From assembly GCA_016190445.1 (NCBI GenBank), contig JACPQL010000008.1, positions 3,139-67,138 on the forward strand: 64,000 nt of DNA. Reading direction: 5' to 3'. A program made the translations under genes and the position numbers. This document shows positions 2,991-47,040 of the stretch, piece by piece. This DNA comes from Chloroflexota bacterium. Lineage in GTDB: Bacteria; Chloroflexota; Dehalococcoidia; Lucifugimonadales; JACPQL01. Positions within the stretch are counted from its first letter, which is position 1; the number at the start of each line of letters is the position of its first letter. A model generated the notes under the pieces. That model made no database searches and was not told the DNA's origin. It worked only from the letters and a program-made list of their open reading frames with translations.

Positions 2991-3059
2991 CTGCGTCCTC
3001 CCTGATTCGATCTTGAGCCGAAAAGATTATAGCATCCATCACCCTCAAACGCCTCCGGC

Positions 3060-3088: not shown

Positions 3089-3162
3089 GATGCCACTTGA
3101 CGCCACTTTGTCGTCTTCCCTCGGCGAGTCCCGCCAGAGCCCACCGCAGCGGAGGCCCTTGC

Positions 3163-11508: not shown

Positions 11509-11586
11509 ATAGTGCCACGCATACCCTGTCCCGTACGCGCCGATACCGGCCCCGGGGCAGGGATATAGGCGGAGGTCAAAGGAGGA

Positions 11587-13389
11587 ATGACCATGAGACG
11601 GACAACAGGCAAAATGCTCACCCTGCTCCTGGGCGCAGCGGCGCTCCTGCTGCTGGCAGTCCAGGCCTGCGCCGGCGCCGAGCCCACGGCCACGCCGACG
11701 CCCACAGCCACGCCACGGCCGGCGGCCACAGCCACCCCGACACCCACTCTGGCGCCTGGCGTGCCCACACCCACACCCACCATCCGGGTGGTGCTGGTGG
11801 CCACTCCAACGCCTACGCCCACAGCCCCACCCGTGGCCGTCAAGCCCAGCGGCACGGTGAAATTCGCCTTCGACGCCGTCTCCAGCGCCTTCCCACTGGA
11901 GCACTTCCAGGGTAGCGCTGCCCAGCGCATCTACATGGGGGGCACGGTCTTCGAGTACCTGTTGGACACGGACCTGGAGGGTAAGATAGTCCCGGGCCTG
12001 GCCACCAAGTGGGAGACCAAGGACGCCAGCTACTGGGACCTGACCATTCGCAAGGGCGTCAAGTTCGCCAACGGCCGCGAGATGGATGTCAACGACATCA
12101 AAGGCAGCTTCGACACCCTGCTGAAGTACGGCAAGGGCTCCCTGGCGGCGCGCTTCAAGCGCATGGTTGACCACGCCGAGGTCCTGAACGACAGCACTGT
12201 GCGCGTGGTGCTCAAGGACCCCAACTTCCTCTTCTATTCCGATATCTCCAGGGCCACCTTCAGCAACTTCTGGATAGTCCCCATGGACTACTTCAACCAG
12301 GTGGGCATAGACAAGTTCGGAGAACAGCCCAGAGGCAGCGGCCCCTACCAGTTCGTGGAGAAGGTGGCAGGCGACCATGTCACCCTCCGCGTGCGCGACG
12401 ACGTGGTCCGCGACGGCCACTGGCGCGTCAAGCCAGTCTACTGGCAAGAGATCCAGTTCTACAAGGTCCAGGAGGAGTCCACGCGTATCGCCATGCTCAA
12501 GACGGCCAAACTGGACCTCGTTGATATCGCCGTCGCCCTCAAGGACCAGGTGGCGGGCCTCCCCCTGGTGCGTAACGAGGGTGTCACCGCCGGCGCCATA
12601 GGCATGTGCTGCATCGGCGACAAGTCCCAGATCCCGGTCTTCAAGGACCGCCCGGGCGAGCCCCTCTTCAACGACATCCGCGTCCGCAAGGCCCTCAACC
12701 TGGCCGTGGACGTGGACACCATCGCCAAGACCATCTTCAAGGGCGAGATAGTCCGCCAGTCCGTCTTCAACTTCACCAAGGATGTCTGGGGGTTCGACCC
12801 CTCGCTCAAACCCTACCCCTACGACGTCGAGCAAGCCAAGCAGCTCGCCAAGGAGGCGGGGTTCCCGCCCCCGGGCTACAAGATGACCATGTACCTGCGG
12901 ACTGATGCCATCGGCATCCCCGACATCGTTGCGGCGGGTGAGGCCGTTGGCACCTACTGGAAGCGCAACCTGGGCGTGGACGTCCAGTTCCAGCCCATTG
13001 AGAATGCCCGCCTCACCCCCATGAACGAGCTGAGTGCTGGAGACCTGTGGAACAACACCTGGACGCCCCGCTCCAGCGTGATAGCTGACCCGGGCCAGGC
13101 TTACCAGGCCACCATGGGCTGCAAGGTCATCTTCAGCTCCACCCACTCCTCCCGCACCACCTGCTCTGAGGTGGATGACTGGATGCTCCAGTACTTCCAG
13201 AGCCCCGACCCGGCCGTCAGGGACGACCTATCCCGCAAGGTCCAGAAGTGGCACTCCGATAACTGGGTCCCCGTGCCCCTGGGCGCCGCCAACCAGATAT
13301 TTGCCCTGGGGCCCAAGGTGAAGAAGTACTACATCCACCCTGGATTCCCCTACGCCGACTACAATGAGCTAACGGAGCCCAACAGGTAG
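11587..13389 (+). CDS. ABC transporter substrate-binding lipoprotein, family 5, paralog 2
   Basis: Same architecture as paralog 1 and clearly homologous along its full length. Confidence 0.9.
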   Translation: MTMRRTTGKMLTLLLGAAALLLLAVQACAGAEPTATPTPTATPRPAATATPTPTLAPGVPTPTPTIRVVLVATPTPTPTAPPVAVKPSGTVKFAFDAVSSAFPLEHFQGSAAQRIYMGGTVFEYLLDTDLEGKIVPGLATKWETKDASYWDLTIRKGVKFANGREMDVNDIKGSFDTLLKYGKGSLAARFKRMVDHAEVLNDSTVRVVLKDPNFLFYSDISRATFSNFWIVPMDYFNQVGIDKFGEQPRGSGPYQFVEKVAGDHVTLRVRDDVVRDGHWRVKPVYWQEIQFYKVQEESTRIAMLKTAKLDLVDIAVALKDQVAGLPLVRNEGVTAGAIGMCCIGDKSQIPVFKDRPGEPLFNDIRVRKALNLAVDVDTIAKTIFKGEIVRQSVFNFTKDVWGFDPSLKPYPYDVEQAKQLAKEAGFPPPGYKMTMYLRTDAIGIPDIVAAGEAVGTYWKRNLGVDVQFQPIENARLTPMNELSAGDLWNNTWTPRSSVIADPGQAYQATMGCKVIFSSTHSSRTTCSEVDDWMLQYFQSPDPAVRDDLSRKVQKWHSDNWVPVPLGAANQIFALGPKVKKYYIHPGFPYADYNELTEPNR

Positions 13390-13522
13390 GCCAGCATCCA
13401 GCCCCTGCCCTGGGGCCAGGACCAGTGCCCCGGGGCAGGGCTATCCTTCTACGGAGCGGCGGCAGTAAAGTTGCCGCGGGGCCGAGTGCGGGAGCAAGTG
13501 CGTCTCGCGCACGGAAGGAGGG

Positions 13523-15310
13523 ATGGCTATGAGAGGTGCAAAAGGCAGGATGCTCACCCTGTTCCTGGGCGCAGCGGCGCTCTTGCTGCTGGCGGCCCAG
13601 GCGTGCGCCGGCGCTGAGCCCACGGCCACGCCCACACCCACACCCACGCCACGGCCAGCAGCCACGGCCACTCCTACCCCCACCCTGGCGCCTGGCGCGC
13701 CCACGCCCACTATCAGGGTGGTGCTGGTGGCCACTCCAACGCCGACACCCACAACCCCACCTGTGGCCGCCAAGCCCAGCGGCACCCTGAAGTACGCCAT
13801 GGACACCATCTCCAGCGCCCTTCCCCTGGAGCACTTCACGGGAGACTCTGCCGTGCGCATCTACATGGGCGGCACGGTCTTCGAGTGGCTCCTGCACACC
13901 GACATGGAAGGCAAGATAGTTCCAGGCCTGGCCACCAAATGGGAGACAAAGGATGGCACGTACTGGGACCTTACCATCCGCAAGGGGGTTACCTTCCCAA
14001 GCGGCCGCGAGATGACCGCGAAGGACGTGGCGGGAAGCATTATGGCGTGGAAGGAGCACGGGAAGGGCTCCTTCGGGAACCACATGAGGCGGGTAATTGA
14101 CCGTGCCGAGGTACTGGACCCCAACACGGTCCGCATGTTCCTGAAGGACCCCGATTTCCTGTGGTTCTTCACCATATCCAGGGCCAACTACCGGAACCCG
14201 TGGACCATTGATATGGAATACCTGGACCAGGTGGGGATTGACAAGTTTCGAGAGCAGCCCGTGGGCACCGGCCCCTTCCGAGTGGTGGAGAAGGTGGCGG
14301 GCGACCACGTCACCCTCCGCGTGCGCGACGACGTGGCCAAGAGCGGCCACTGGCGCGTCAATCCCGTCTACTGGGAACAGATCCAGGCATACAAGGTCCA
14401 GGAGGAGTCCACCAGGATCGCCATGCTCAAGACGGCCAAACTGGACCTGATTGACATAGCCGTGGGTCTCAAGGACCAGGTGGCTGGCCTGCCCCAGGTG
14501 AGGAACGAGGGGGTCTCCGGCGCCGCCATCGGCCTCTGCTGCATCTCAGACAAGGAAGACTCCATATTCAACGACATCCGTGTCCGCAAGGCGTTGAACC
14601 TGGCAGTGGACATGGACACCGTAGCCAAGACCGTCTTCAAGGGAGAGCTGACCCCCCAGGCGGTGTTCATCTTCACCAAGGACATGTGGGGCTTCGACCC
14701 CTCCCTCACGCCCTACCCCTACAATGTTGAAGAGGCCAAGAAACTCGCCAAGGAGGCGGGCTTCCCACCCCCCGGCTACAAGATGACCATGTACCTGCGC
14801 ACCGACGCCCCTGGATTCCCCGATCTTCCGGCCGCGGGGGAGGCCATCGGCACCTACTGGAAGCGCAACCTGGGCGTGGACGTCCAGTTCCAGCCCATCG
14901 AGTATGCCCGCCTCAGCGCCATGTTCGCGTGGGACAGCACAACACGGAAAATGCAGGCTCCGGGCCTGTGGAACAACACCTGGACGCCACGTGCCACCAC
15001 GATCCCGAACCCGAGCGAGGTCTTCAACACGGCCTTCGGGTGCAAAGACATATTCGGCGCCAGCCACACCTCGCGTTTAACCTGCGGCGAGGTGGACAAC
15101 TGGATGCTCCAGTACCCCCAGAGCCCTGACCCAGCCGTCAGGGACGAGCTGGCCCGCAAGGTGCAGAAGTGGTACCACGAGCAGTGGATCCCGGTGCCCA
15201 TCGGCGTGACTAACCAGATCTTCGTCTCGGGCCCCAAGGTAGCCACCTACTCCCCGCAACCCGGCTTCTCCTACGGCGACAACTTCGAGTACGTGGTACC
15301 CAAGAGGTAG
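13523..15310 (+). CDS. ABC transporter substrate-binding lipoprotein, family 5, paralog 3
   Basis: Same architecture as paralog 1. By eye it is the most divergent mature domain of the four. Confidence 0.9.
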   Translation: MAMRGAKGRMLTLFLGAAALLLLAAQACAGAEPTATPTPTPTPRPAATATPTPTLAPGAPTPTIRVVLVATPTPTPTTPPVAAKPSGTLKYAMDTISSALPLEHFTGDSAVRIYMGGTVFEWLLHTDMEGKIVPGLATKWETKDGTYWDLTIRKGVTFPSGREMTAKDVAGSIMAWKEHGKGSFGNHMRRVIDRAEVLDPNTVRMFLKDPDFLWFFTISRANYRNPWTIDMEYLDQVGIDKFREQPVGTGPFRVVEKVAGDHVTLRVRDDVAKSGHWRVNPVYWEQIQAYKVQEESTRIAMLKTAKLDLIDIAVGLKDQVAGLPQVRNEGVSGAAIGLCCISDKEDSIFNDIRVRKALNLAVDMDTVAKTVFKGELTPQAVFIFTKDMWGFDPSLTPYPYNVEEAKKLAKEAGFPPPGYKMTMYLRTDAPGFPDLPAAGEAIGTYWKRNLGVDVQFQPIEYARLSAMFAWDSTTRKMQAPGLWNNTWTPRATTIPNPSEVFNTAFGCKDIFGASHTSRLTCGEVDNWMLQYPQSPDPAVRDELARKVQKWYHEQWIPVPIGVTNQIFVSGPKVATYSPQPGFSYGDNFEYVVPKR

Positions 15311-15342
15311 GCAGCAGGCTTTCAGGCATGCCCTTTGACACT

Positions 15343-15370
15343 GGGCGGCGCCGGTTGTCCGGCGCCGCCC
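15343..15370 (+). terminator. GC-rich hairpin after SBP paralog 3
   Basis: gggcggcgccgg-ttgt-ccggcgccgccc forms a perfect 12-bp stem, followed by agtcctttg. Confidence 0.5.
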
Positions 15371-15479
15371 AGTCCTTTGAGCGAGGCTTGCATTTATGCC
15401 CCTGGGTTGCTACTATCTTTCTCACTTTCCCCGCGCAGCAGAGTGGCTGCTACGAGATTCATAGGCGGAGGGCAGGAGT

Positions 15480-17255
15480 ATGAACAGAACCCGTCTCGTG
15501 TCGGTCCTCGTTGGCTTGGCGATGGTGCTGACACTGGTTGTAGCCTGCGCGGGCGCCGAGCCAACGGCCATCCCCACACCTACGCCCACGCCACGGCCAG
15601 CGGCCACGGCCACCCCCACTCCCACCCCAGCGCCGGGCACGCCTACGCCCACGCCCACCATCCGGGTGGTGCTGGTGGCCACACCAACGCCAACACCCAC
15701 GGCCCCGCCTGTGGCCGTCAAGCCCAGCGGCACCCTGAAGTACGCCATGGATGCCATCTCCAGCGCCCTGCCCCTCGAGCACTTCAACGGAGATGCAGCC
15801 GTGCGCATATACATGGGCGGCACCGTCTTCGAGTGGCTCATAGGCACCGACTTCCAGGGCCAACTGGTCCCCGAGCTGGCCACCAAGTGGGAGACCAAGG
15901 ACGGCAAAAGCTGGGACTTCACCATCCGCAAGGGGGTCACCTTCCCCAACGGCCGCGAGATGGACGTCAACGACATCAAGGGTTCCATGGACGCTGAGTT
16001 GAAGTACGGCAAGGGCTCCGCGGGGGCCCACTTCAAGCGCATCATTGACCACGTGGAGGTCCTGAGCCCAGATACCGTGCGGATCGTCATGAAGGACCCC
16101 AACTACCTCTTCTACGATACTATGTCCAAGGCCTCCTACAGGAACTACTGGACAATGCCCATGGACTACTTCAATCAGGTGGGAGTAGACAAGTTCAACA
16201 CACAGCCCATGGGCACCGGCCCCTACCAGTTCGCGGAGAAGGTGGCGGGTGACCACGTCACATTCCGGGTTAGGGACGATGTGGCCAAGAGTGGCCACTG
16301 GAGGGTCAAACCCGTCTACTGGGAGGAGATCCAGGCATACAAGGTCCAGGAGGAGTCCACCAGGATCGCCATGCTCAAGACCGGCCGATTGGACCTGATT
16401 GACATCGCCGTTGCCCTCAAGGACCAGGTGACAGGCTGGCCCCTGATGCGCAACGAGGGCGTCACCGGCGCAGCCATCGCCATGTGCTGTATCGGCACTG
16501 CCCCCTCTGTCTTCAACGATATCAAGGTCCGCAAGGCCCTCAACTTGGCAGTGGACATGGACACTATCGCCAAGACCATCTTCAAGGGCGAGATCGTCCG
16601 CCAGGCGGTCTTCAACTACACCAAGGACGTCCGGGGCTTCGACCCCTCCCTCAAGCCCTACCCCTACGACCCGACTGAGGCCCAGCGCCTCGCCAAGGAG
16701 GCCGGCTTCCCGCCGCCAGGCTACAAGATGACCATGTACCTGCGGACCGACGCCATCGGCATCCCCGACATCACTGCGGCGGGTGAGGCCGTGGGCACCT
16801 ACTGGAAGCGCAACCTGGGCGTGGACGTCCAGTTCCAGCCCATCGAGCAGGTACGCCTGAGCCCAATGGTCACTCTCAAGACCCCTCCCGACCAGATGAC
16901 GGCCCCGGGGATGTGGAACAACACATGGACAGCTCGTTGCTCCCCAGTGGCAAACCCGGGGGAAGTCTTCAACTCCTGCATGGGCGGCAAAGAGCGTTTC
17001 AGCACCAGCCACACCTCCCACATACGTGCCGACGAGGTGGACGACTGGATGTGGGCCTACTACCAGTCACCGGACCCCAAGGCCAGAGACGAGCTCTCCA
17101 TAAAGATCCAGAAGTGGTTCTATGACGCCTGGATTCCGGTGCCCCTGGGGGCAGCCAACCAGATCTTCGCCCTGGGACCCAAGGTGAAGACCTACCACAT
17201 TCACCCTGGGTTCCCTTACGCCGACTACATCGAGTACACTGAGCCCAACAGGTAG
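15480..17255 (+). CDS. ABC transporter substrate-binding lipoprotein, family 5, paralog 4
   Basis: Different signal peptide (MNRTRLVSVLVGLAMVLTLVVAC) but the same PT tether and SBP core. Confidence 0.9.
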   Translation: MNRTRLVSVLVGLAMVLTLVVACAGAEPTAIPTPTPTPRPAATATPTPTPAPGTPTPTPTIRVVLVATPTPTPTAPPVAVKPSGTLKYAMDAISSALPLEHFNGDAAVRIYMGGTVFEWLIGTDFQGQLVPELATKWETKDGKSWDFTIRKGVTFPNGREMDVNDIKGSMDAELKYGKGSAGAHFKRIIDHVEVLSPDTVRIVMKDPNYLFYDTMSKASYRNYWTMPMDYFNQVGVDKFNTQPMGTGPYQFAEKVAGDHVTFRVRDDVAKSGHWRVKPVYWEEIQAYKVQEESTRIAMLKTGRLDLIDIAVALKDQVTGWPLMRNEGVTGAAIAMCCIGTAPSVFNDIKVRKALNLAVDMDTIAKTIFKGEIVRQAVFNYTKDVRGFDPSLKPYPYDPTEAQRLAKEAGFPPPGYKMTMYLRTDAIGIPDITAAGEAVGTYWKRNLGVDVQFQPIEQVRLSPMVTLKTPPDQMTAPGMWNNTWTARCSPVANPGEVFNSCMGGKERFSTSHTSHIRADEVDDWMWAYYQSPDPKARDELSIKIQKWFYDAWIPVPLGAANQIFALGPKVKTYHIHPGFPYADYIEYTEPNR

Positions 17256-36679: not shown

Positions 36680-37414
36680 GTGAACAGCCGAAGAAAGGGG
36701 TCGACGTGCGCCATCGAGGTGCAGGGGCTGCATAAGGCCTTCGGTCCCCTCTCCGTGCTGCGACGCCTCAGCCTGCGGGTGGAGTGGGGCGAATGCCTGG
36801 TTCTCCTGGGGCCCAACGGCTCTGGCAAGACCACTCTCCTCAAGGTGCTGGCCACCCTTGCCAGGCCCGACGCAGGCCAGGTGCAGGTGGCAGGGTACGA
36901 CCAGCGGCAGTACCCAGCCCATGTGCGGGCAGCCGTGGGGATGCTGGGGCACCACTCCCTTCTGTACGATGAGCTGACCCCTGAGGAGAACCTGCGCTTC
37001 TACGGTAGGCTGTACTCCGTGGCTGGCCTGGAGCAACGCATAGCCGAGGTGCTGAAGCGCGTGGGCATGGCAGAGCGAAGACGCCAGCGGGTGCGCACCA
37101 TGTCGCATGGCATGCAGCGCAGGGTGGCGCTGGCGCGGGCCATCCTCCACGACCCGCCCGTGCTGCTGCTGGACGAGCCGGAGTCAGGGCTGGACCAGGA
37201 GGCCCTGAGTCTGCTGAAGGGGATCCTGAAAGGCACCGTGGAGCACGGCGGCTCAGTGCTCATGAGTACCCATAACCTGGAGCAGGGGCTGGCCCTGGGC
37301 GACCGCATCGCCATCCTGGCGGGCGGGCGCATCGCGTACCTGGAGTCCGCCAGGACGCTGGACGCCGCCGCCGTCCAGGGGGCCTTCCGGCGGCATACGG
37401 GGGCCAGCCTGTGA
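36680..37414 (+). CDS. ccmA: Heme-exporter-type ABC ATPase
   Basis: Walker A GPNGSGKTT, signature MSHGMQRR, Walker B LLLDEP. Directly followed by ccmB and ccmC. Confidence 0.8.
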   Translation: MNSRRKGSTCAIEVQGLHKAFGPLSVLRRLSLRVEWGECLVLLGPNGSGKTTLLKVLATLARPDAGQVQVAGYDQRQYPAHVRAAVGMLGHHSLLYDELTPEENLRFYGRLYSVAGLEQRIAEVLKRVGMAERRRQRVRTMSHGMQRRVALARAILHDPPVLLLDEPESGLDQEALSLLKGILKGTVEHGGSVLMSTHNLEQGLALGDRIAILAGGRIAYLESARTLDAAAVQGAFRRHTGASL

Positions 37415-38085
37415 CCAACTTCTGGCGGGCTGTCCTCACCATACTCTGGAAGGACATACTGCTGGAGGTGCGGGCCAAAGAGACCATCACCCCCGTCCTG
37501 GTCTTCGCCTTCCTGGTGGTGATCATCTTCAACTTCGCCTTTGAGCCCACCCCTCTTCTGGTGGTGACGGTGGCGCCGGGAATCCTGTGGGTGGCCTTCA
37601 CCTTCGCGGGGGTCCTGGGGCTAAGCAGGAGCTTCGCCGTGGAGAAGGACAAGGGCAGCCTGGACGGGCTCATGCTGGCCCCCGTGGGGCGCGAGGCCAT
37701 ATACTTCGGCAAGCTCCTGGGGAGCTTTCTCTTCATGCTGGTGGTGGAACTCCTAATGCTGCCGCCCTTCCTGGTACTGTTCAACGTGCCGCTCTTCGAG
37801 CCTGAGTTCCTTATCACCGCGATGGTGGCCACCCTGGGCTTCGCCGCCGTGGGCACCGTATTCTCGGCCATGTCCGTCAACACCAGGGCGAGGGAGATCA
37901 TGCTGCCGGTCCTCTTCTTCCCCATCGTGTTGCCGGTCATCATCGGCGCAGTGGCGGCCTCAGGCCCCATCCTGGAGGAGGGGAGCTGGTCGGACATCGC
38001 CGGGTGGCTACAGTTCATGGTGGCTTTCGACGCCATATTCCTTGTGGTATCATCTTTGACGTTCCAGTTCGTTCTGGAGGAGTGA
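37411..38085 (+). CDS. ccmB: Heme exporter protein B
   Basis: 224 aa with six hydrophobic segments. GTGA overlap with ccmA. N-terminus ILWKDILLEVRAKE is typical of CcmB. Confidence 0.8.
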   Translation: MTNFWRAVLTILWKDILLEVRAKETITPVLVFAFLVVIIFNFAFEPTPLLVVTVAPGILWVAFTFAGVLGLSRSFAVEKDKGSLDGLMLAPVGREAIYFGKLLGSFLFMLVVELLMLPPFLVLFNVPLFEPEFLITAMVATLGFAAVGTVFSAMSVNTRAREIMLPVLFFPIVLPVIIGAVAASGPILEEGSWSDIAGWLQFMVAFDAIFLVVSSLTFQFVLEE

Positions 38086-38103
38086 GCGACGGCACCAGAG
38101 GCC

Positions 38104-38817
38104 GTGACAGAGAGCAGGCGCAGGGGAGCGGGGTGGGGGACGCTGCTTCAAGAGGCGTGGCTGCCGCTGGCAGCAGCGCTGATGCTGGCGGACCTGGCCC
38201 TCATCTTTCTCTGGGTGCCCACCGACGCAACGATGGGGATCGTGCAGCGGGTGTTCTACTTCCACGTGCCATCGGCGTGGGTGGGGTTCCTGGCCTTCTT
38301 TGTGGTGTTTGTGGGGAGCATAGCCTATCTGGTAAAGCCGGCCCCCCGCTGGGATGCCCTGGCGCACTCCGCCGCCGAGATCGGTACCCTATTCATGACC
38401 ATTGTCCTGATCACGGGGCCCATATGGGCCAGGCCCGTGTGGGGGGTGTGGTGGACATGGTCGCCCCAGCTCACCACCTCCCTCATCCTGTGGCTCATCT
38501 ACGTTGCCTACCTCATGCTGCGGGCCTATGCGCCCACCCAGCAGCAGGCAGCCAGATATTCCGCCGTGCTGGGCATCATCGGCTTTGTGGACGTGCCGAT
38601 AATATACTTTGCCGCTATACTCTGGCGTGATATTCATCCGGAGAAGGTGGTGGGCCCCATGGCCGAGCGAGGCAGCCTGGCGCCGGAGATGCTGTTTGTC
38701 TTCCTTTTCTCAGTGCTCACCTTCACCGTGCTGTTCGTGATGTTTCTCCAGCAGCGCCTCACTGTACGCAGAGCAGAGGACACGCTGGCGCAAGCGCGGC
38801 GTGCCAGCTCGCGGTGA
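38104..38817 (+). CDS. ccmC: Heme exporter protein C (cytochrome c assembly)
   Basis: Trp-rich heme-handling motif WARPVWGVWWTWSPQ and flanking His residues. Confidence 0.85.
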   Translation: MTESRRRGAGWGTLLQEAWLPLAAALMLADLALIFLWVPTDATMGIVQRVFYFHVPSAWVGFLAFFVVFVGSIAYLVKPAPRWDALAHSAAEIGTLFMTIVLITGPIWARPVWGVWWTWSPQLTTSLILWLIYVAYLMLRAYAPTQQQAARYSAVLGIIGFVDVPIIYFAAILWRDIHPEKVVGPMAERGSLAPEMLFVFLFSVLTFTVLFVMFLQQRLTVRRAEDTLAQARRASSR

Positions 38818-38828
38818 GAGGAGGGGCT

Positions 38829-38997
38829 TATGCCTGACCGAAACCTGGCCTACCTCTTCGCCGCCTTCGCAGTGACCTGGGCTGCATTCTTTGCATACGT
38901 TTTCTACCTGGCGGTCAAGAACAGGGAGCTGCGCCGAGAGATCGAACTCCTGCGCAAGCTCCTGGAGGAGAGAGACGAGTCGCCCTCCTCCCACTAG
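38829..38997 (+). pseudogene. ccmD: CcmD-family small membrane protein, reading frame broken by one extra G in a G4 run
   Basis: ATG 38829 encodes MPDRNLAYLFAAFAVTW. After the G run at 38878-38881, the CcmD-like continuation AAFFAYVFYLAVKNRELRREIELLRKLLEERDESPSSH lies in the +1 frame and ends at TAG 38995-38997. Confidence 0.5.
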
Positions 38998-39062
38998 AAG
39001 GCTACTGAAAAAGGAGTCCTTCGGCGATCTGCTAGGTGGTGTCCCCGAAGTTCGTTGCCAAA

Positions 39063-39190
39063 GTCATTGCGAGGCCCGATGGTTCGAGGTCCTCACCACA
39101 AGCTCCGGAGGGCCGTGGCAATCCGGTGACGGGGTCCACCCCTCCAGATTGCTTCGTCGTCCCGATGTCATCGGGACTCCTCGCAATGAC
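39063..39190. repeat. MITE/REP-like element with 12-nt terminal inverted repeats
   Basis: gtcattgcgagg at 39063-39074 and cctcgcaatgac at 39179-39190. Contains an internal gtcccgatgtcatcgggac hairpin shared with 26211-26243 and 59208-59227. Confidence 0.65.
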
Positions 39191-39273
39191 AATTCGCAAG
39201 CATGTTTCAGAAACAGGACACTAGGTGGTGAGAGAGCCTGTCGGGGCCTTGGCCGCCCAAGCGGAGTAACCAT

Positions 39274-39906
39274 ATGGTCGCCTGGAGGACGCTGGCCCTT
39301 TCACTGCTCCTGACGCTGGCCGCAGCCGCCTGTGCCCAGGGGGAGCTAACTCCAACGCCCACTCCCCGACCTTCCACTCTCGTCCCCCCGGACGCCCACT
39401 CCCAGGGAGAGGTGGGGGCACCAGTCACAGTGGTGGAGTTCTCGGACTTCCAGTGACCCTACTGCCGCGACTTCGCCCTCGGGTCAGGGCGAAAGATGGT
39501 AGAGGAGTTCGTGACCGCGGGCCGGGTCCGCTTCGTGTACCGGCACTACGCCTTCCTGGGCCGGGAGTCGGTGCGGGCCGCCGAGGCTGCGGAGTGCGCC
39601 GCCGAGCAAGGCCGCTTCTGGGAGTACCACGACACCCTCTTCTCCAACTGGGGTGGAGAGAACCGCGGCGCCTTCAGTGATGACCGTCTGAAGAGGTTCG
39701 CCGCTGCCCTGGGTCTGGACCGGGAGAAGTTCAACTCCTGTTTGGACAGCGGCCGATACTCTTATCGAGTGGGGGCGGACAACAGGGATGCCCAGGTCAC
39801 CGGTGTCCGCGGCACCCCCACCGTGTTCGTCAACAATACGCAGGTGGGGAACCCCCTGGACTACTCCCAGTTGAGACGCGCCATCCTCGCCGCTCTCCCG
39901 CGCTAA
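39274..39906 (+). CDS. DsbA-family thiol:disulfide oxidoreductase lipoprotein, candidate selenoprotein (TGA 39454-39456 read as Sec in a UxxC motif)
   Basis: Two track ORFs (39274-39456 and 39496-39906) share one frame with no other stop between them. The joined translation reads VTVVEFSDFQ-[TGA]-PYC, matching the DsbA FSDFQCPYC active site. Downstream sequence is DsbA-like throughout (GRFWEYHDTLF, GVRGTPTVFVN). Lipobox LAAAAC plus a PT tether. Confidence 0.7.
39472..39493 (+). promoter_or_regulatory. SECIS-like stem-loop downstream of the in-frame TGA
   Basis: ttcgccct-cgggtc-agggcgaa forms a perfect 8-bp stem with a 6-nt loop containing GGUC. The stem begins 15 nt after the TGA and the loop 23 nt after it. 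Confidence 0.55.
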
Positions 39907-40160: not shown

Positions 40161-40367
40161 ATGGCAGTAGAGAAGTCTATGGCATCGGCCAGCCTGGCAG
40201 AGGTCGTGGACCGGATCCTGGACAAGGGCGTCGTAGTAGACGCCTGGGTCCGCGTCAGCCTGGTAGGCATCGAGATCCTGGCCATCGAGGCCAGGGCGGT
40301 GGTGTCCGGTGTAGACACGTTCCTGAAGTACGCCGAGGCTGTGGGATTGACGGCGGCAGCCGCCTAA
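40161..40367 (+). CDS. gvpA: Gas vesicle structural protein GvpA
   Basis: 68 aa with [52 protein letters not shown], a near-canonical GvpA core. GAAGGAGG RBS. Confidence 0.95.
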
Positions 40368-40538
40368 GCCCCGCGCACCCAAGTGGGCTCCGGGTGGCCC
40401 CCAAGCACGCCTGGCACCGCCGGGCTCCCCTCCTCCCCAAGGAGACTTAACCTCCTGACGGTACACCCCCTGAAGGGATGCTGATGAGGCAGCGGGCTGA
40501 AGAGGCCACCCGGAGACTGGAATGAAAGGAGGACGGCA

Positions 40539-40937
40539 ATGCCAGCGGCAGAAGAGATGAAAAAGGTGGTGCAGGAGATTATCGGCGCGTACGACACCAG
40601 GGCGGCGGAGGGCGCGTCGCTGCGAGGACAGGTGTCCGACCAGAGGCAGGCAGCCCAGTCGCAACTCCACCAGATGGCCCGAGCCCATCTCACCATGGCC
40701 AAGGAGCAACGGGCCGACCTAACCAGGGAACATACCCACCTGACACGGGCAGGGGCCCAGCGCCGCGCCGATGTTGGCGCCTGGATGAAGCAGGTGACCA
40801 CGGACCACAGGGAGGCCAGAGCGGCGTGGCAACAGATGGGTTGCACCCTGCGAGAAAAGAGGGGAGGCGCCAGTGCCCTGGCCGCCGCACCCGTGTTGGA
40901 GGCCCCGGAGATAACGCCAAGGTCACGGAAGGGCTAG
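40539..40937 (+). CDS. Hypothetical helical protein in the gvpC position (between gvpA and gvpN)
   Basis: 132 aa, R/Q/A-rich and predicted helical, with an AAAGGAGG RBS. No 33-residue GvpC-type repeats visible. Confidence 0.5.
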   Translation: MPAAEEMKKVVQEIIGAYDTRAAEGASLRGQVSDQRQAAQSQLHQMARAHLTMAKEQRADLTREHTHLTRAGAQRRADVGAWMKQVTTDHREARAAWQQMGCTLREKRGGASALAAAPVLEAPEITPRSRKG

Positions 40938-41028
40938 CCGGGCTCCTGGGAGAACCGGGCGTGTGGGCCCCTTTTAGGGAATACGGGGCCTCGTCTGCTC
41001 CGCCATCGAGAAAGAAGGAGTTGAGCCG

Positions 41029-41949
41029 ATGACAACGGCCATGGACGGGCGAATGACCCTCCTGGAGCCCCGGGCACTGCCCAATTTTGTCGAGACCCCG
41101 TTTGTCCAGGGGATCGTGGAACGCGCTCTGACCTACGTCGCAGCCGGCTTCCCCATCCACTTCAGGGGAGCCTCGGGCACAGGGAAGACCACCCTGGCCA
41201 TGCACGTGGCCGCCAAGCTGGGCCGCCCCGTGGTGATGATCCACGGGGACGAAGAGTTCTCCACCTCTGACCTGGTGGGCGGCAAGCACGGGTACCGGAT
41301 GCGGAGGGTGATAGACAACTTCATCCACTCTGTCCTGAAGACAGAGGAGGACATGACTCAGAGGTGGGTAGACAACCGGCTGACGGTGGCCGCCCAGCAC
41401 GGTTTCACCTTCATATACGACGAGTTCACCCGCTCCCGGCCCGAGGCCAACAACGTGCTCCTTTCGGTGCTTCAGGAGCGGATGCTAGACCTGCCCCCCG
41501 CCAGGGAGGGAGAGAGCTACCTCCGGGTCCACCCCGACTTCGCCGCCATCTTCACCAGCAACCCAGAGGAATACGCAGGCGTGTATCGCAGCCAGGATGC
41601 TCTCAGGGACAGGATGATCACTCTTGACTTGGGGTGCTTCGACGAGGAGACGGAGGTGGCCATCACCCAGGCCAGGTCCGGCCTGGAGAGCGCCGATGCC
41701 GAGAAGATCGTGCGGGTCGTCCGCGGCCTGCGGGACTCCGGAGTGTGCGAGTTCGCCCCTACCGTGCGAGGCTGCATCATGGTGGCCAGAGCCATAAAGG
41801 TGCAAGGCGGGGCCGTCACTGCTGAAGACGCTCAATTCCAGCACCTGTGCCAGGACATCCTGGCCTCGGAATCATCCCGAGGTGGCGGAGAGAGCCAGAC
41901 ATCGAGGGTAAGAGAGGTGCTGGACAGCCTCATCGCCCGCTATTGCTAG
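41029..41949 (+). CDS. gvpN: Gas vesicle protein GvpN (AAA+ ATPase)
   Basis: Walker A GASGTGKTT, Walker B FIYDEFTRS, and typical GvpN length and context. Confidence 0.9.
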   Translation: MTTAMDGRMTLLEPRALPNFVETPFVQGIVERALTYVAAGFPIHFRGASGTGKTTLAMHVAAKLGRPVVMIHGDEEFSTSDLVGGKHGYRMRRVIDNFIHSVLKTEEDMTQRWVDNRLTVAAQHGFTFIYDEFTRSRPEANNVLLSVLQERMLDLPPAREGESYLRVHPDFAAIFTSNPEEYAGVYRSQDALRDRMITLDLGCFDEETEVAITQARSGLESADAEKIVRVVRGLRDSGVCEFAPTVRGCIMVARAIKVQGGAVTAEDAQFQHLCQDILASESSRGGGESQTSRVREVLDSLIARYC

Positions 41950-41961
41950 CCGGAGGAGAGC

Positions 41962-42306
41962 ATGAAACGTGTGACAGAGCTGAAAGCGCTGGGTGACATA
42001 AGGACCGCCGTAAGGGCTCGCATCCACTCCAAGACACCCCAAAAGGGGACAGCCCACCGGGACCTCTACCTCCTCAGCAAGGAGAAGGACAGGCTGGAAA
42101 AGGGGCTAGCCCGCCTTGACCGGGAGCGCAAACGCATCCTGGATCACCTGGTAGAGACCTTCAAGGCCCTGGGAAAGCTCCAGCAGAAGGCGCGAGGGGA
42201 GTTGGAGGCCCTGGAGACCACCTCTGAGCCGGCAGAGTGCAACAGGCCGGCGACGGCTTCCCAACACCCGCGGGGGCGTTGGAGGACCGTGCCCTTGGAC
42301 TACTAG
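41962..42306 (+). CDS. Small coiled-coil protein after gvpN (possibly GvpV-like by position)
   Basis: 114 aa with DLYLLSKEKDRLEKGLARLDRERKRILDHL and a GGAGGAG RBS. The GvpV assignment rests only on synteny with gvpN-gvpV arrangements known in other clusters. Confidence 0.45.
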   Translation: MKRVTELKALGDIRTAVRARIHSKTPQKGTAHRDLYLLSKEKDRLEKGLARLDRERKRILDHLVETFKALGKLQQKARGELEALETTSEPAECNRPATASQHPRGRWRTVPLDY

Positions 42307-42337
42307 AACCTAGTGCCAGAAAAGCACGGTATCACGA

Positions 42338-42434
42338 CCCGCTCATGGTTCGACAAGCTCACCATGAGCCGCTCGCCCTTCGACAGGTCCGACTGTGCCG
42401 AGACTCCGATGAAGTCGGAGCTCAGGGTGAGCGG
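42338..42434. repeat. REP-like unit of the 'gctcatggt...accatgagc' family inside the gvp cluster
   Basis: Hairpins gctcatggt/accatgagc and ctccga/tcggag. Homologous to 54839-54915 and partly to 1585-1650. Confidence 0.75.
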
Positions 42435-42488
42435 CTGTCGGTGACGCCGATTTAGGACAGCAAGTACTAGCAGCGTGAGGCTGAGCGG

Positions 42489-43550
42489 ATGACCCAGACC
42501 TACCTCTACAGCATCATAGACGGCGGCGCCCAGGGTGCCCTCGGCGTCGCCGGTGTGGATGGCACCAGCCCCGTGCGCACGCTGGCGCACGACGGCCTGG
42601 GGTGCGTGGTGAGTGACTACCCGGGCGAGGAGTTCAACGCCCTCTCCAGGGAGGAGGTGGTGCGACACCTCCTTGCCCACCAGCGGGTAGCCGAGCACCT
42701 CATGCGAGACCATACCGTGCTCCCGGTCAGGTTCGGCACGTTACTGAATAGCCCCCAGGAGGCGCTGGCCCTCCTGTCCCAGGGCCGCCCGGTCTTTGCG
42801 GAGGCCATGGCCTCTACCCGGGACAGGGTAGAGCTGGAGGTGGCCGCCACGTGGGACGCCAATCGTGTGCTTCGGGAGACCGCCACAGATGAGGAGGTGG
42901 CACGTGCCAGAGAGGCGCTGCCCAGGGAGCCGGAGCGGCAGACCCTGGAGCAGCGAGTCCGTCTGGGCCAGACCGTCAAAGCGTGCATGGACAGGCGCCG
43001 GGACACCTATCGGGACCGTATGGTGGACTTTCTCAGGCCCCTCGCCGTGGATGTGGCCGCCAACACCCTGGTCTCGGACGAGATGGTGATGAACGTGGCC
43101 CTGCTGATTGAGCGGAGCCGCCAGCCCGAGTTTGAAGCCAGGGTGCACCAGCTCGATGCGCTTTTCCAGAACGAGATCACCTTCCGCGTGATAGGCCCTC
43201 TGCCACCCTACAGCTTCTGCACTGTAGGGGTAACCCGGCTGACCGGGGAGGAGATAGAGGAGGCATGGCGAAGACTCCGCCTGACACAACCCGTCTCCGA
43301 GGCCGAGGTCCGACGGGCCTACCGGCGACTGACGGCCCAGGAGCAACTCCACGGTGGGTTGGTCAGCGACCAACTCCTGCGGCTGAGAGAGGCGTCCGAG
43401 TTGCTCCTTCGCTACTGCCGGGCGCGGAGAGTCGGGGCGCACCCCGAGGATAGCGCCCCTCTGTTTGACATCGAGGTCATCCGCAGAAGGAGCAATGAGG
43501 TCCGGCCCTCCCAGTTCGGGGCGGCGATTGCCAGGAGTGCAGTGGCCTGA
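42489..43550 (+). CDS. gvpL: GvpL/GvpF family protein with a C-terminal extension of about 105 aa (degenerate J-domain-like)
   Basis: N-terminus YLYSIIDG...GCVVSDYP...LLAHQRVAEHLMRDHTVLPVRFGT. The core ends at GPLPPYSFC (43220), and an extra domain follows. Confidence 0.85.
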   Translation: MTQTYLYSIIDGGAQGALGVAGVDGTSPVRTLAHDGLGCVVSDYPGEEFNALSREEVVRHLLAHQRVAEHLMRDHTVLPVRFGTLLNSPQEALALLSQGRPVFAEAMASTRDRVELEVAATWDANRVLRETATDEEVARAREALPREPERQTLEQRVRLGQTVKACMDRRRDTYRDRMVDFLRPLAVDVAANTLVSDEMVMNVALLIERSRQPEFEARVHQLDALFQNEITFRVIGPLPPYSFCTVGVTRLTGEEIEEAWRRLRLTQPVSEAEVRRAYRRLTAQEQLHGGLVSDQLLRLREASELLLRYCRARRVGAHPEDSAPLFDIEVIRRRSNEVRPSQFGAAIARSAVA

Positions 43551-44323
43551 TGACCCAGCCAGGAAGATACCTCTACTGCATCATCCGCTGCTCCGAGGAG
43601 CGCGCCTTTGAGGGCGTGGCACCCATCGGGGGGGCCGATGCCGCGGTGTACACCGTCCCCCACGGCGCCCTCGCCATGGTGGTCAGCGACTCGGCCACAA
43701 GGGAGTACGAGGCTACCCGGGCCAACATGCTGGCCCACGAGCGTGTCCAGGAGAGGGTCCTGCGGGAGTTCACCCTCCTCCCCGTCCGGTTCGGGACGGT
43801 GGCTAACTCCACAGCACCCGTCCACGAAATCCAGAGGCTCCTGGAGAAGAGGTCCCCGGAGTTTGACCGGCTCCTTTTGGAGATGGAGGGGAAAGTGGAG
43901 CTGGGCATCAAGGCCCTATGGAGAAACGAGAAGGTCATCTTTGAGGAGGTCCTGGCCGAGAACCCCCGCCTCAGACGGCTCCGCAACTCGCTGATGGGAA
44001 AACCTCCTGAGGTGGTCCGGCGGGAGGGCGTACCGCTGGGAGAAGGCGTGAAAGCGGCGCTGGAGCAGAAAAAGAGCGCCGAGGCGGCCACCATCGTGGC
44101 CCCGCTGGGCCGGATTGCACGCCGCGTACAGGCGGACCAGACCACGGTGGACCGGATGATAGTCAACACCGCCTTCCTGGTTGACCAGGAGCGGCAAGAG
44201 GAGTTCGACCGACAGGTGGCCCTTCTGGACACGGAGCTGGGGCCGCGAGTCCTCTTCAAGTACGTCGGGCCAGTGCCGCCATACAACTTCGTCAACATTG
44301 TGGTGAACTGGGACGAGGTGTGA
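43550..44323 (+). CDS. gvpF: Gas vesicle protein GvpF
   Basis: RYLYCIIRC...LAMVVSD...MLAHERVQERVLREFTLLPVRFGTV...GPVPPYNF. 1-nt overlap (TGATG) with the preceding gene. Confidence 0.9.
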   Translation: MTQPGRYLYCIIRCSEERAFEGVAPIGGADAAVYTVPHGALAMVVSDSATREYEATRANMLAHERVQERVLREFTLLPVRFGTVANSTAPVHEIQRLLEKRSPEFDRLLLEMEGKVELGIKALWRNEKVIFEEVLAENPRLRRLRNSLMGKPPEVVRREGVPLGEGVKAALEQKKSAEAATIVAPLGRIARRVQADQTTVDRMIVNTAFLVDQERQEEFDRQVALLDTELGPRVLFKYVGPVPPYNFVNIVVNWDEV

Positions 44324-44335
44324 AGGAGCGACCGG

Positions 44336-44587
44336 ATGGGGCTTTTCCGGAACCTGCTGATGCTGCCGATGCTGGGGGCTCCCCAAATGGTCCACTGGCT
44401 CGCCGGAACCCTCGCCGAGGAGGCGGAGCGCCGTGCATTGGATGACGTGAGCGTGCGGGGCGAGCTCCTGGAACTACAGCGCCAATATGACGCCGGCGAG
44501 ATGGAAGAGGCGGAGTATGACCGTCAGGAGAGGACTCTGCTAGAGAGGCTCAGCGCCATTCGGGAGGCCAAGGCACAGCGGAGCTAG
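44336..44587 (+). CDS. gvpG: Gas vesicle protein GvpG
   Basis: 83 aa. Hydrophobic N-terminus LPMLGAPQMVHWLAGTLAEEAE followed by LLELQRQYDAGEMEEAEYDRQERTLLERL, typical of GvpG. Confidence 0.85.
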   Translation: MGLFRNLLMLPMLGAPQMVHWLAGTLAEEAERRALDDVSVRGELLELQRQYDAGEMEEAEYDRQERTLLERLSAIREAKAQRS

Positions 44588-44598
44588 AGAGGAGCCAG

Positions 44599-44904
44599 AT
44601 GGAGACCGCGATAGCTACAGAGATGGCGCAAAGCGCCAAGCCCAAACTTGCAGACCTTGTGCAGAAGGCCAGGGCCCAGTTGGCCGAGGTGACCGGCCTC
44701 AAGCCCGTGGCTGTGACGGCGGTTTCCAAGGACCATGACCTCTGGCACATCAGGGTGGAGATGCTGGAGATGTCCAGAATACCCACCGCCACCGATGTGC
44801 TGGGGGAGTATGAGGTGCTCCTGGCGGAGGACGGCGGCATGGTGAGGTTTGAGCGAAAGCGCACCAGGCTTCGGGGCGCGCCCACGGAGATGGAGAAGGA
44901 GTAA
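44599..44904 (+). CDS. gvpO: Gas vesicle protein GvpO
   Basis: 101 aa. The pattern WHIRVEMLEMSRIPTATDVLGEYEVLLAEDGGMVRFERKR matches the GvpO core. Confidence 0.75.
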   Translation: METAIATEMAQSAKPKLADLVQKARAQLAEVTGLKPVAVTAVSKDHDLWHIRVEMLEMSRIPTATDVLGEYEVLLAEDGGMVRFERKRTRLRGAPTEMEKE

Positions 44905-44910
44905 GGAAAG

Positions 44911-45189
44911 ATGGCGTCGCAGTTGGAGAGGGATAGCACCGGCACCCTGGCTGACGTCATAGACCGGATCCTGGACAAGGGCCTGGTCATCAATGCCGAC
45001 ATCCGGGTGAGCGTCGTGGGGGTGGAGCTCTTGGACATCCGAGTCCGAGCGGCCCTGGCCTCCTTCGAGACTGCGGCGCTGTACGGCCTGGAGTTCCCGT
45101 CGGGGACCAGGCTGCCGGAGGCGGTGGGCCAGGCCCGGCCCTCGGCCTCCCGAAACGGCGCAGCGCTGGCCCACGTCCCTGAGCTGTAG
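44911..45189 (+). CDS. gvpJ: Gas vesicle protein GvpJ (GvpA family)
   Basis: [43 protein letters not shown], which is a GvpA/J-type core. Confidence 0.85.
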
Positions 45190-45260
45190 CCGTGGTGGGC
45201 TGCGGACACGAACAGGGTTGTGCCGCCACGATAAGAGGGCCGTAGTAGGAGGTGTGACCT

Positions 45261-45863
45261 ATGGACGACAAAAAGGGACAGCCGGACCCTGGCGCTCTTC
45301 TTGGCGGGACATTGAACATCCTCGGCCTCAAGCTAGACCTGGGGGAGCTGCTGGGCTCCCAGGGGGGACTCACCGAGCGTCTGGAGGAGCTGCGAGAGAG
45401 GCTGAAGGCCGCTGGAGGGAGAGAGTCACTCTCCGACGAGGACTGGAAGCACGGGGGCGCCAGAGTCTCCGGCCACATCCGGACCCGGGGCGCTCTGGGC
45501 GACCAGGAGTACCACATCGGGACAGCGGGCCGGCCACCAAAGAGGGCGGCGCCCACGCCCCAGCCCTCGGAGCCGGTGGAGCCACCTGTTGACGTCTTCG
45601 ATGAGGTTGGCCAGGTAACCATAGTCGCCGATGTCCCAGGGGCCGGCATCGAGGACCTGGAATTGAAGGTGGAAGGGCGTGCATTCTCGCTCGCCACCGG
45701 AGAAAAGGCGCGGCGGAGCTACCACAAGGAGCTCGGCCTTCCCGCTGACGTGGAGCCGGACAGCCTGCGGGCGACGTGCCGCAACGGCGTCCTGGAGGTC
45801 CGCCTGCGAAAGAGGGGAACAAAGGAATCGGGAACAGAGTCCAGTGGTGGCCAGGGCGAGTAG
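45261..45863 (+). CDS. gvpH: Hsp20/alpha-crystallin domain protein, GvpH-like
   Basis: C-terminal ACD: VDVFDEVGQVTIVADVPGAGIEDLELKVEG...RATCRNGVLEVRLRK. Located inside the gvp cluster. Confidence 0.75.
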   Translation: MDDKKGQPDPGALLGGTLNILGLKLDLGELLGSQGGLTERLEELRERLKAAGGRESLSDEDWKHGGARVSGHIRTRGALGDQEYHIGTAGRPPKRAAPTPQPSEPVEPPVDVFDEVGQVTIVADVPGAGIEDLELKVEGRAFSLATGEKARRSYHKELGLPADVEPDSLRATCRNGVLEVRLRKRGTKESGTESSGGQGE

Positions 45864-45866
45864 AGC

Positions 45867-46187
45867 ATGATCCTGGAGCTGAGCGAAGGGGACCTGAAGA
45901 GCGGCGTGCTCAGCCTCGTCGTCGCCCTCGTGGAGATCATCCGTGAGGCGCTGCGACTCCAGGCGGTGAAGCGCATGGAGGGCGGCAGCCTCACGGAGAG
46001 GGAGGTGGAGAGGCTGGGAGAGGCGCTCACTGACCTGGACGCCGCCATCGAGAAGCTAAAGGTCGAGATGGGGATAGCGGAGTCGGTGAAGTCGGTGAGG
46101 GACGGCCTGGACAGCCTGGTGGACGACCTCCTGGACACAATGCTGGCCCCACGACGCTGGGCCCAAGAAGCCCAGCCAGTGCCATAG
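45867..46187 (+). CDS. gvpK: Gas vesicle protein GvpK
   Basis: GVLSLVVALVEIIREALRLQAVKRMEGGSLTEREVERLGEAL, typical of GvpK. Confidence 0.85.
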   Translation: MILELSEGDLKSGVLSLVVALVEIIREALRLQAVKRMEGGSLTEREVERLGEALTDLDAAIEKLKVEMGIAESVKSVRDGLDSLVDDLLDTMLAPRRWAQEAQPVP

Positions 46188-46189
46188 AC

Positions 46190-46999
46190 ATGCAGCAGGT
46201 CATCGCGGCTGAAATACGAACTCAGGCTCCCGCCAGCGAGCAGGCCGGGTGCTACGTCTACTGTGTCGCTCCGGCCATCGAAGCGACGGGCCTGGGGCCC
46301 ACCGGCATCGAGGGCCGGGAGGTCCGCGCCGTAGCGCACAACGGCCTGTGCGCCCTGGTGCACCACTGTCCGGCCCAGCCCTACCAGTCCGACGACGCTG
46401 AGGTGACCGCCTCCTGGGTCCTGGCCCACCACCGGGTGGTGGAGACCGCCTGGAGACGGTGCGGCACGGTGCTCCCCATCACCTTCAACACCATCATCAG
46501 GGCAGAGGAGGGCAGTGCCGAGGAGAGCCTGAGAGCGTGGCTAAATAGGGAATGCCCAAGGCTCGAAGAGAGGCTCCGCTCCCTCGCAGGGAAGGCCGAG
46601 TACGGGGTCCAGCTCTTCTGGAACATCGCGGTCATAGGCAAAAAGGTCGCCCAGGGCAGCCCACAGCTCCGGGCGTTGGAGGAGGAGATACGAAGCAAGT
46701 CGCGGGGCCTTGCCTACATGTACCGCCAGAGACTGGAGCGACTGCTGAGGAGTGAAATGGAGGCCAGGGCGGAGGAGGAGTCCAGAGACCTGTACGCCCG
46801 GCTGGACCGCTGCGTGGAGAGCATCCACATTGAAAGGGCAAAGAGGGACCAGAACGAGCGCCAGATGCTGATGGACCTCTCCTGCCTGGTCTCCGCGGAG
46901 AGGTACCCGGAGCTGGAGGCGGAGCTAAAGAAAGTGGGCCAGAGGGAGGGCCTCTACGTCCGCCTGACAGGGCCCCTGCCCCCCTACAGCTTCTGCTAG
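46190..46999 (+). CDS. gvpL: GvpL/GvpF family protein (third paralog)
   Basis: CYVYCVAP...LCALVHHCP...VLAHHRVVETAWRRCGTVLPITFNT...GPLPPYSFC. Confidence 0.85.
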   Translation: MQQVIAAEIRTQAPASEQAGCYVYCVAPAIEATGLGPTGIEGREVRAVAHNGLCALVHHCPAQPYQSDDAEVTASWVLAHHRVVETAWRRCGTVLPITFNTIIRAEEGSAEESLRAWLNRECPRLEERLRSLAGKAEYGVQLFWNIAVIGKKVAQGSPQLRALEEEIRSKSRGLAYMYRQRLERLLRSEMEARAEEESRDLYARLDRCVESIHIERAKRDQNERQMLMDLSCLVSAERYPELEAELKKVGQREGLYVRLTGPLPPYSFC

Positions 47000-47040
47000 T
47001 GTCCTATAACCGAAATACGTTGAATGAATCAGGGCTCGTG

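Follow-up and report, generated by a model that had tools for sequence, protein, structure and literature searches.

An in-frame UGA at the catalytic cysteine position of a DsbA-like oxidoreductase from a Dehalococcoidia bacterium as a probable selenocysteine codon

Oxidoreductases of the DsbA superfamily with a UxxC motif, in which selenocysteine (Sec, U) takes the place of the first Cys of the redox center, have been predicted since 2004-2005 (PMC1088965, PMC1794560, PMC13188914). A survey of the Sargasso Sea predicted both "DsbA-like" (COG2761/PF01323) and "DsbG-like" (COG1651) selenoproteins of this type (PMC1088965), and a DsbG-like selenoprotein is described from Symbiobacterium thermophilum in work that counted three selenoprotein families in Chloroflexi (PMC1794560). 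Here we analyze a gene in a 64,000-nucleotide stretch of DNA, called the window throughout, from a Chloroflexota bacterium of the class Dehalococcoidia (assembly GCA_016190445.1, contig JACPQL010000008.1, positions 3,139 to 67,138 of the forward strand). The gene encodes a DsbA-like protein whose frame is interrupted by a single TGA at the position of the nucleophilic Cys, and we conclude that this UGA very probably encodes Sec. The gene is a divergent new member of a selenoprotein kind that has been defined bioinformatically, and not a new kind of system. A first-pass annotation, made from the letters of the window alone, had proposed a Sec codon, a SECIS-like hairpin (for selenocysteine insertion sequence), and a gene split by annotation, and had treated thioredoxin-fold and DsbA-like selenoproteins as an established class; the UxxC predictions for COG1651 in the literature bear out the latter (PMC1088965, PMC1794560, PMC13188914), and the conserved codon and frame, the co-varying hairpin, its agreement with the bacterial SECIS consensus, and independent assemblies, all described below, uphold the former.

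The closest curated relative of the window protein is NF041057, the "Rcas_1661 family thioredoxin-like (seleno)lipoprotein," which a 2026 review equates with the DsbG-like selenoproteins (PMC13188914). Both have a Thioredoxin_4/DsbA-like fold, a UxxC motif with Sec first, a lipoprotein-type N-terminus, a SECIS just 3' of the UGA, and an occurrence in Chloroflexota. In searches with the 210-residue product, in which U was replaced by C for all protein comparisons, NF041057 was the best NCBIfam model (E = 1.9e-39, profile positions 75 to 239 of 247), but the score was 135.7 bits against a curated cut-off of 190, and the SECIS of the window gene is of a type of its own. The window protein is thus a relative rather than an equivalog member. 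Among homologs that carry TGA at the same codon, here called U-forms or Sec forms as opposed to Cys forms, seven from other subfamilies (loci L237, L081, L109, L083, L141, L090, and L086) scored 96 to 169 bits, all below the same cut-off, so NF041057 appears to miss most of a widespread U-form group. The DsbG-like family itself is said to go back to Kryukov and Gladyshev in 2004 and to Zhang et al. in 2005/2006.

Two Pfam families matched the window protein well above threshold. PF13462 (Thioredoxin_4) extended across the TGA from residue 41 to residue 204 (E = 1.4e-35, 123.4 bits, cut-off 23.2), and PF01323 (DSBA) gave E = 1.1e-17 (64.9 bits, cut-off 25.6). The top match among solved structures was Bacillus subtilis BdbD (3eu3, E = 6.9e-18), followed by actinobacterial oxidases of the DsbA/MdbA type (4pwp, 7unn, and 4k6x), with E values for the set of 7e-18 to 1e-8. 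These enzymes share with the window protein the position of the CxxC, the TPT cis-Pro loop, and a location, predicted for the window protein, that is extracytoplasmic and membrane tethered; in the BdbD alignment, CPSC lies opposite TGA-PYC and the TPT loop opposite GTPT. The cis-Pro loop of DsbA-family folds faces the active site. Fold and active site are placed by these sequence-level comparisons with Pfam and solved structures, which assign the protein to the BdbD/DsbA-type thioredoxin-fold enzymes, in the COG1651/PF13462 branch. Unlike the window protein, BdbD and the actinobacterial oxidases have Cys rather than Sec, and the partner of BdbD is BdbC, a DsbB-type protein, whereas the window holds no partner gene; pairing with VKOR, on the other hand, is common to Actinobacteria and to the relatives of the window gene. 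The "DsbA-like protein form 1" of the Sargasso Sea/GOS data (COG2761, PF01323, FrnE-like) resembles the window protein in its UxxC motif, its DsbA superfamily membership, and its prediction from Cys/Sec pairs, but it belongs to another subfamily, and FrnE-type structures match the window protein weakly (E ~3e-5, residues 102 to 186).

The strong case for Sec comes from comparative data rather than from the window sequence alone. The TGA is the sole stop within the frame of the gene, and the translation around it reads VVEFSDFQ-TGA-PYCRDF. A list of open reading frames (ORFs) breaks the gene into 39274-39456 and 39496-39906, and public gene calls on identical contigs break it likewise, into products of 60 and 136 amino acids, as the first-pass annotation had expected of standard procedures; its description of a single frame, with these coordinates and this junction, agrees with the sequence. 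At the TGA column, all 80 Cys-type homologs fetched from species-representative genomes read EFSDFQ-C-P/S-x-C, and CxxC occupies the TGA position in 116 of 119 other proteins from a database search. Aligning the joined 210-residue product with DsbA homologs, a check proposed along with the first-pass annotation, therefore sets Cys opposite the TGA in every one of the 80 Cys forms and in BdbD as well.

Conservation of the TGA itself was surveyed by scanning species-representative genomes for DNA encoding EF[S]DFQ-TGA-P[FY]C, with counts that are lower bounds. The pattern occurred in at least 119 species-level genome stretches, compared to a chance expectation of ~0.02 by an information-content estimate, and the matches listed fell mostly in Chloroflexota, Acidobacteriota, Myxococcota, and Planctomycetota. 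Past the TGA, the frame stayed open for ~143 to 165 codons in nearly all complete cases (121 instances). A second pattern, consisting of the first plus the subfamily peptide F-A-L-G, was found at 17 genome loci, nearly all labelled Dehalococcoidia/Chloroflexota, SAR202 included, and at 25 metagenome loci. Complete Dehalococcoidia chromosomes with the U-form include OZ242283.1, OZ253584.1, and OY730226.1. In all, more than 150 homologous loci retain both the TGA and the open frame.

These data bear directly on two simpler accounts of the TGA. One is a sequencing or assembly error that hides a true TGC or TGT. A single base separates TGA from TGY, but contigs assembled independently from runs SRR12113433, SRR12113385, and SRR12113401 match the window at 100% identity across 1.0 to 1.8 kb, TGA and hairpin included, and the same TGA recurs in the homologs just described; the chance of an error is negligible. 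The other is read-through of UGA in the absence of SelB and Sec, by near-cognate decoding as Trp or Cys or by a lineage-specific recoding, which would give a W/CxxC protein. Low-level insertion of Trp or Cys at UGA is known in bacteria. However, TGA terminates 9 of the 26 Pfam-supported genes of the window, which indicates that the standard genetic code applies and that UGA has not been reassigned. The codon also stands where homologs have their catalytic Cys, a position classically open to Cys/Sec exchange, and a hairpin that co-varies at SECIS distance has no part in simple read-through, so that we consider this explanation very unlikely.

The hairpin downstream of the TGA is a perfect 8-bp helix, TTCGCCCT paired with AGGGCGAA, closed by the loop CGGGTC. 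From the TGA, it is 15 nt to the start of the stem and 23 nt to the start of the loop. The bacterial SECIS (bSECIS) consensus calls for an apical loop of 3 to 9 nt, an upper stem of 4 to 16 bp, a G in the first two loop positions, a distance of 16 to 37 nt between UGA and loop, and a minimum free energy of -7.5 kcal/mol or lower (PMC13188914, Fig. 2). Checked by hand, the window hairpin has a 6-nt loop with G at position 2, an 8-bp stem, the 23-nt distance, and a free energy of -12.1 kcal/mol, and the position, 15-nt offset, SECIS-like spacing, and loop content given in the first-pass annotation all agree with what we find. As an isolated element, the hairpin has a z score of -2.78, and 0 of 200 shuffled sequences were as stable. 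It is comparable to the SECIS-SelB system of Escherichia coli fdhF and fdnG in being a hairpin within the coding sequence directly 3' of the UGA, with a small G/U apical loop and consensus spacing, but it has no sequence similarity to the E. coli elements and matches no Rfam model. The window is without an Rfam match at the gathering threshold, a result that is uninformative either way for the hairpin; at E <= 10, positions 39380 to 39600 gave one chance-level match to an unrelated long noncoding RNA model (E = 7.2) and none on the hairpin.

A strong hairpin begins 14 to 25 nt past the TGA in every subfamily, built from different codons. In Acidobacteriota and Myxococcota it has the form GAGGGTCG-GTC-CGACCCTC, and in the sister, Anaerolineae-type group, CTGRCG-CGGGT-CGYCAG. 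The window type, TTCGCCCT-CGGGYC-AGGGCGA, sits 6 nt upstream of the place taken by the sister hairpin and is present in 27 distinct sequences, the window and 26 others, mostly from Dehalococcoidia. Of seven stem pairs common to the family, four are invariant across these 27, two of the four including 4-fold degenerate third positions, and the pair 21-38 is CG in 21, UA in 5, and UG in 1 and is never unpaired; RNAalifold independently predicted the same helix. For the sister type (n = 35), 99% of cells are paired, compensatory changes occur in three of six pairs, and 0 of 500 shuffles were as good, by controls that ignore phylogenetic relatedness. Conservation of the hairpin among orthologs with TGA was the test that the first-pass annotation had named for telling a selenoprotein from a simple nonsense pseudogene, and in these orthologs the hairpin is conserved and co-varies.

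Codon choice and a comparison with Cys forms add to this evidence. The window stem is written in codons that are rare in the window, with TCA making up 4.3% of Ser codons and CGA 7.7% of Arg codons, along with GGG, at 25% of Gly codons. Across the family, the stem uses GCC for Ala and GGG for Gly in 27 of 27 sequences, where the backgrounds are 35% and 20%. Sec forms (n = 118) have more stable best local hairpins than Cys forms (n = 69), with median free energies of -11.45 and -7.4 kcal/mol (Mann-Whitney p = 4e-10), and the gap persists in each GC bin, with a GC-adjusted effect of -3.25 kcal/mol (t = -6.3), these statistics again ignoring relatedness among the sequences.

Several observations count against Sec insertion at this UGA. 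Judged from the window sequence alone, the significance of the hairpin is only moderate: the fold of its 67-nt context is ordinary (z = -1.51, with 19 of 200 shuffles as stable), and 12 of the 1,520 TGA trinucleotides of the window (0.8%, at 65% GC) are followed by a hairpin that is as good, lies at a distance compatible with a SECIS, and has G in loop positions 1 or 2. The shuffle controls and the Sec-versus-Cys statistics carry the disregard of relatedness noted above. A quick neighbor-joining tree, built from 127 U-forms and 117 C-forms, intermingles the two kinds; in it, the window protein stands on a long branch with the U-forms L221 and L228 marginally nearest, a loose placement with respect to any Sec clade. 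Its score also falls short of the NF041057 cut-off. None of selA, selB, selD, or tRNA-Sec was found within the 64-kb window; Pfam searches of all large window ORFs returned no SelA, SelB, or SelD, and ARAGORN detected no tRNA in the window and, in 119 related loci, none but ordinary tRNAs. A search for the SelD N-terminal motif over 1.66 Mb of sequence gave one spurious match. No partner of the VKOR or DsbB kind came to light in the window, where VKOR was searched for by tblastn and with a hidden Markov model of 13 VKORs, so that a partner, if any, would be encoded elsewhere. To our knowledge, moreover, the DsbG-like selenoprotein family is known from in silico prediction only. The functions of these predicted selenoproteins are described as uncharacterized (PMC13188914).

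A further point of this kind concerns the nearest Cys form, P0003/L321, which is 61% identical to the window protein, has TGT at the codon, and over the peptide CPYCRDFALGPGRQ retains most of the hairpin. Cys forms that share the local peptide are a mixed control, the more distant L322 (FALGMGRQ) and L005 (FALGPTRQ) being without the hairpin and L321 (FALGPGRQ) having most of it. Since L321 keeps the hairpin, the structure is not exclusive to Sec forms and is not diagnostic by itself. We read L321 as a recent switch from Sec to Cys, and its hairpin may be a fossil SECIS. In the L321 sequence (78-854, ENA ERZ24794666, coverage ~3.5x), the hairpin reads TCGCCCT-CGGACC-AGGGCGG over the same peptide.

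Some of these observations are shared with a different explanation, that the gene is a nonsense pseudogene produced by mutation of TGC or TGT to TGA or stranded by loss of the Sec machinery, with the hairpin a relic or a coincidence. The Sec machinery was not found within the window, the interleaving of Sec and Cys forms in the quick tree implies frequent switches, a close Cys form with the hairpin means that hairpin and codon can uncouple, and gene callers split the gene. On the other side, the gene shows no further lesion: its two halves are intact and conserved and share one frame, and a Pfam domain spans the TGA. The same codon is TGA in more than 150 homologs with open frames, the stem is maintained by rare codons and by compensatory changes, and the sequence is identical in several samples. 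We regard a pseudogene as quite unlikely. With Sec at the UGA as the preferred reading, the locus should be annotated as one gene, neither a pseudogene nor two fragments, a call that NF041057 would not rescue here or in the seven U-forms tested. A further implication is Sec decoding by the source organism, which would be useful in interpreting other split genes of its genome. A scan for other selenoprotein candidates, as TGAs with an open frame of high third-position GC to either side, gave ordinary gene ends only.

The function of the protein was approached through the gene neighborhoods of related Sec loci, by targeted tblastn for VKOR and ccm genes. In bacteria without DsbB, DsbA-like proteins are re-oxidized by VKOR, a quinone-linked enzyme. 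Directly 3' of the U-form gene, on the same strand and ~0.45 to 0.55 kb past the TGA, a VKOR gene (PF07884, E = 5e-23) is present in 14 Sec loci (L218, L221, L226, L228, L235, L237, L239, L240, L207, L238, L187, L135, L194, and L234). These include all five of the nearest relatives (L221, L228, L235, L237, and L226; 55 to 60% identity), and a VKOR also follows the Cys form L322 (L322:3720-4172). In the literature searched, we found no paper that joins VKOR, selenocysteine, and DsbA. From these neighborhoods, the protein most likely acts outside the cytoplasm as a general disulfide oxidase or isomerase, with a U-x-x-C center, and the VKOR synteny of the relatives favors general oxidative folding over a dedicated step in cytochrome c biogenesis.

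The latter role, control of apocytochrome thiols by a cytochrome c maturation component co-expressed with ccmABCD, takes up the first-pass annotation, which had suggested apocytochrome or periplasmic thiol redox control. Its placement of the gene after ccmABC(D) is correct, ccmA through ccmD lying upstream on the same strand, and BdbD, the structural relative, is known to oxidize apocytochrome c, so that some interplay is plausible. The link to cytochrome c maturation is drawn from adjacency alone and is not supported. ccmB or ccmC is found near 0 of 156 related Sec loci, and the closest relatives are paired with VKOR instead. Between ccmD and the gene, there is a 276-nt spacer (38998-39273) with a stem-loop, the fold is of the DsbA/BdbD type (PF13462) and not the redoxin type of CcmG or ResA, and on its opposite side the gene adjoins a gas-vesicle cluster, which is unrelated. 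We consider a dedicated cytochrome c maturation role unlikely. A CcmG/DsbE/ResA-type thioredoxin was a separate candidate that we rejected, as the Pfam matches above threshold were Thioredoxin_4 and DSBA, with no Redoxin or AhpC-TSA, and the related loci had the same lack of ccmB and ccmC. As for the spacer, it contains at ~39159-39177 an 8-bp inverted repeat, GTCCCGAT-GTC-ATCGGGAC, with no T-run, which may form a stem-loop of terminator-like or regulatory character ahead of the selenoprotein gene; a scan for consensus terminators did not flag it.

Taken as a general extracytoplasmic oxidoreductase, the protein would be made and used as follows. By the canonical bacterial mechanism, SelB.GTP.Sec-tRNA(Sec) would bind the hairpin and Sec would be inserted at the UGA without termination. 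The 210-residue precursor would then be exported by its signal peptide and probably acylated at Cys20: its N-terminal pattern conforms to the bacterial lipoprotein signal rule, the N-termini of relatives have a lipobox or a transmembrane anchor, and the mature protein is probably lipid anchored. Outside the cytoplasmic membrane, U61 and C64 would cycle between the selenolate/thiol and selenenylsulfide states in disulfide exchange with secreted proteins. The closest relatives, with their two-gene unit of selenoprotein and VKOR, suggest that the product of such exchange would be general oxidative protein folding.

Current understanding stands in that Cys/Sec exchange at the CxxC of thioredoxin folds is well established. 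What the window gene adds is a divergent, Dehalococcoidia-type lineage of the extracytoplasmic "DsbG-like" selenoproteins, and the VKOR synteny of its nearest relatives points to a testable role for Sec in oxidative folding outside the cytoplasm. We also propose, tentatively and with somewhat less than even confidence, a wider picture. The U-form BdbD/DsbA-like group may be larger and more diverse than curated models capture, with the Dehalococcoidia-type clade acting as a selenium-dependent DsbA-VKOR module in which a selenenylsulfide, in place of a disulfide, is the oxidant passed to secreted proteins, and with the SECIS rebuilt from different codons, and shifted by at least 6 nt, between subfamilies. 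Coordinates of the gene, its elements, and its upstream context are given in Table 1.

Table 1. Positions in the window of the predicted selenoprotein gene, its sequence elements, and the adjoining ccm genes
Feature	Position	Strand	Remarks
Predicted DsbA/BdbD-like selenoprotein coding sequence	39274..39906	+	ATG at 39274; 210 codons including Sec61; TAA at 39904-39906
Shine-Dalgarno-like GGAG	39263..39266	+	Read from sequence, 7 nt 5' of the ATG; putative function
Predicted signal peptide with lipobox-like end	39274..39333	+	MVAWRTLALSLLLTLAAAA-C20; judged by pattern
Pro/Thr-rich tether TPTPTPRPS	39349..39375	+	After the signal peptide
UGA as probable Sec61, first residue of the UPYC redox motif	39454..39456 (motif 39454-39465, residues 61-64)	+	Aligns with Cys
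bSECIS-type hairpin within the coding sequence	39472..39493	+	Stem 39472-39479 / 39486-39493; loop CGGGUC at 39480-39485
GTPT, cis-proline loop of the thioredoxin fold (residues 180-183)	39811..39822	+	From phmmer alignment to ATPT of BdbD
ccmABCD, upstream context	36680..38997	+	ccmA 36680-37414, ccmB 37411-38085, ccmC 38104-38817, ccmD 38830-38997; Pfam ABC_tran, CcmB, Cytochrom_C_asm; NCBIfam CcmD

Departures from the usual architecture were seen among the U-forms. In L087, L140, L142, L183, L186, and L195, the frame runs 300 to 525 codons past the TGA rather than ~150, which suggests that additional domains are attached C-terminally to the selenoprotein part. The reverse arrangement is found at four loci from SAR202/Dehalococcoidia metagenome-assembled genomes (MAGs; L105, L106, L214, and L236). 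There, a protein of ~470 amino acids starts with a lipoprotein signal, continues with a long Pro/Thr/Ala linker and a YceI-like domain (PF04264), and ends in the U-form DsbA domain. One Myxococcota MAG (L145, JBBTFH010000117.1) has three tandem paralogous U-form DsbA genes at 1558-3549 on the minus strand, each with TGA and hairpin.

Elsewhere in the window, a complete gas-vesicle gene cluster begins directly downstream of the selenoprotein gene, at 40161-47000 on the plus strand, and continues to 53014. It comprises gvpA (40161-40367), a gvpN-like AAA gene (41029-41949), gvpL/F (42489-43550), gvpF (43550-44323), gvpG, gvpO, a second GvpA/J-like gene (44911-45189), Hsp20, gvpK, and a further gvpL/F (46190-46999), and 3' of the cluster are genes for DnaK, a protein with a helix-turn-helix and a GvpH/Hsp20-like part, and a CDC48-type AAA ATPase. 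A search with PpsA gave relatives of only 55 to 62% identity, nearly all labelled Dehalococcoidia or Chloroflexota, which puts the organism in Chloroflexota close to Dehalococcoidia. Far upstream, positions 9727-17255 of the plus strand hold four tandem paralogs of ~595 amino acids each that belong to the family-5 extracellular solute-binding proteins (PF00496).

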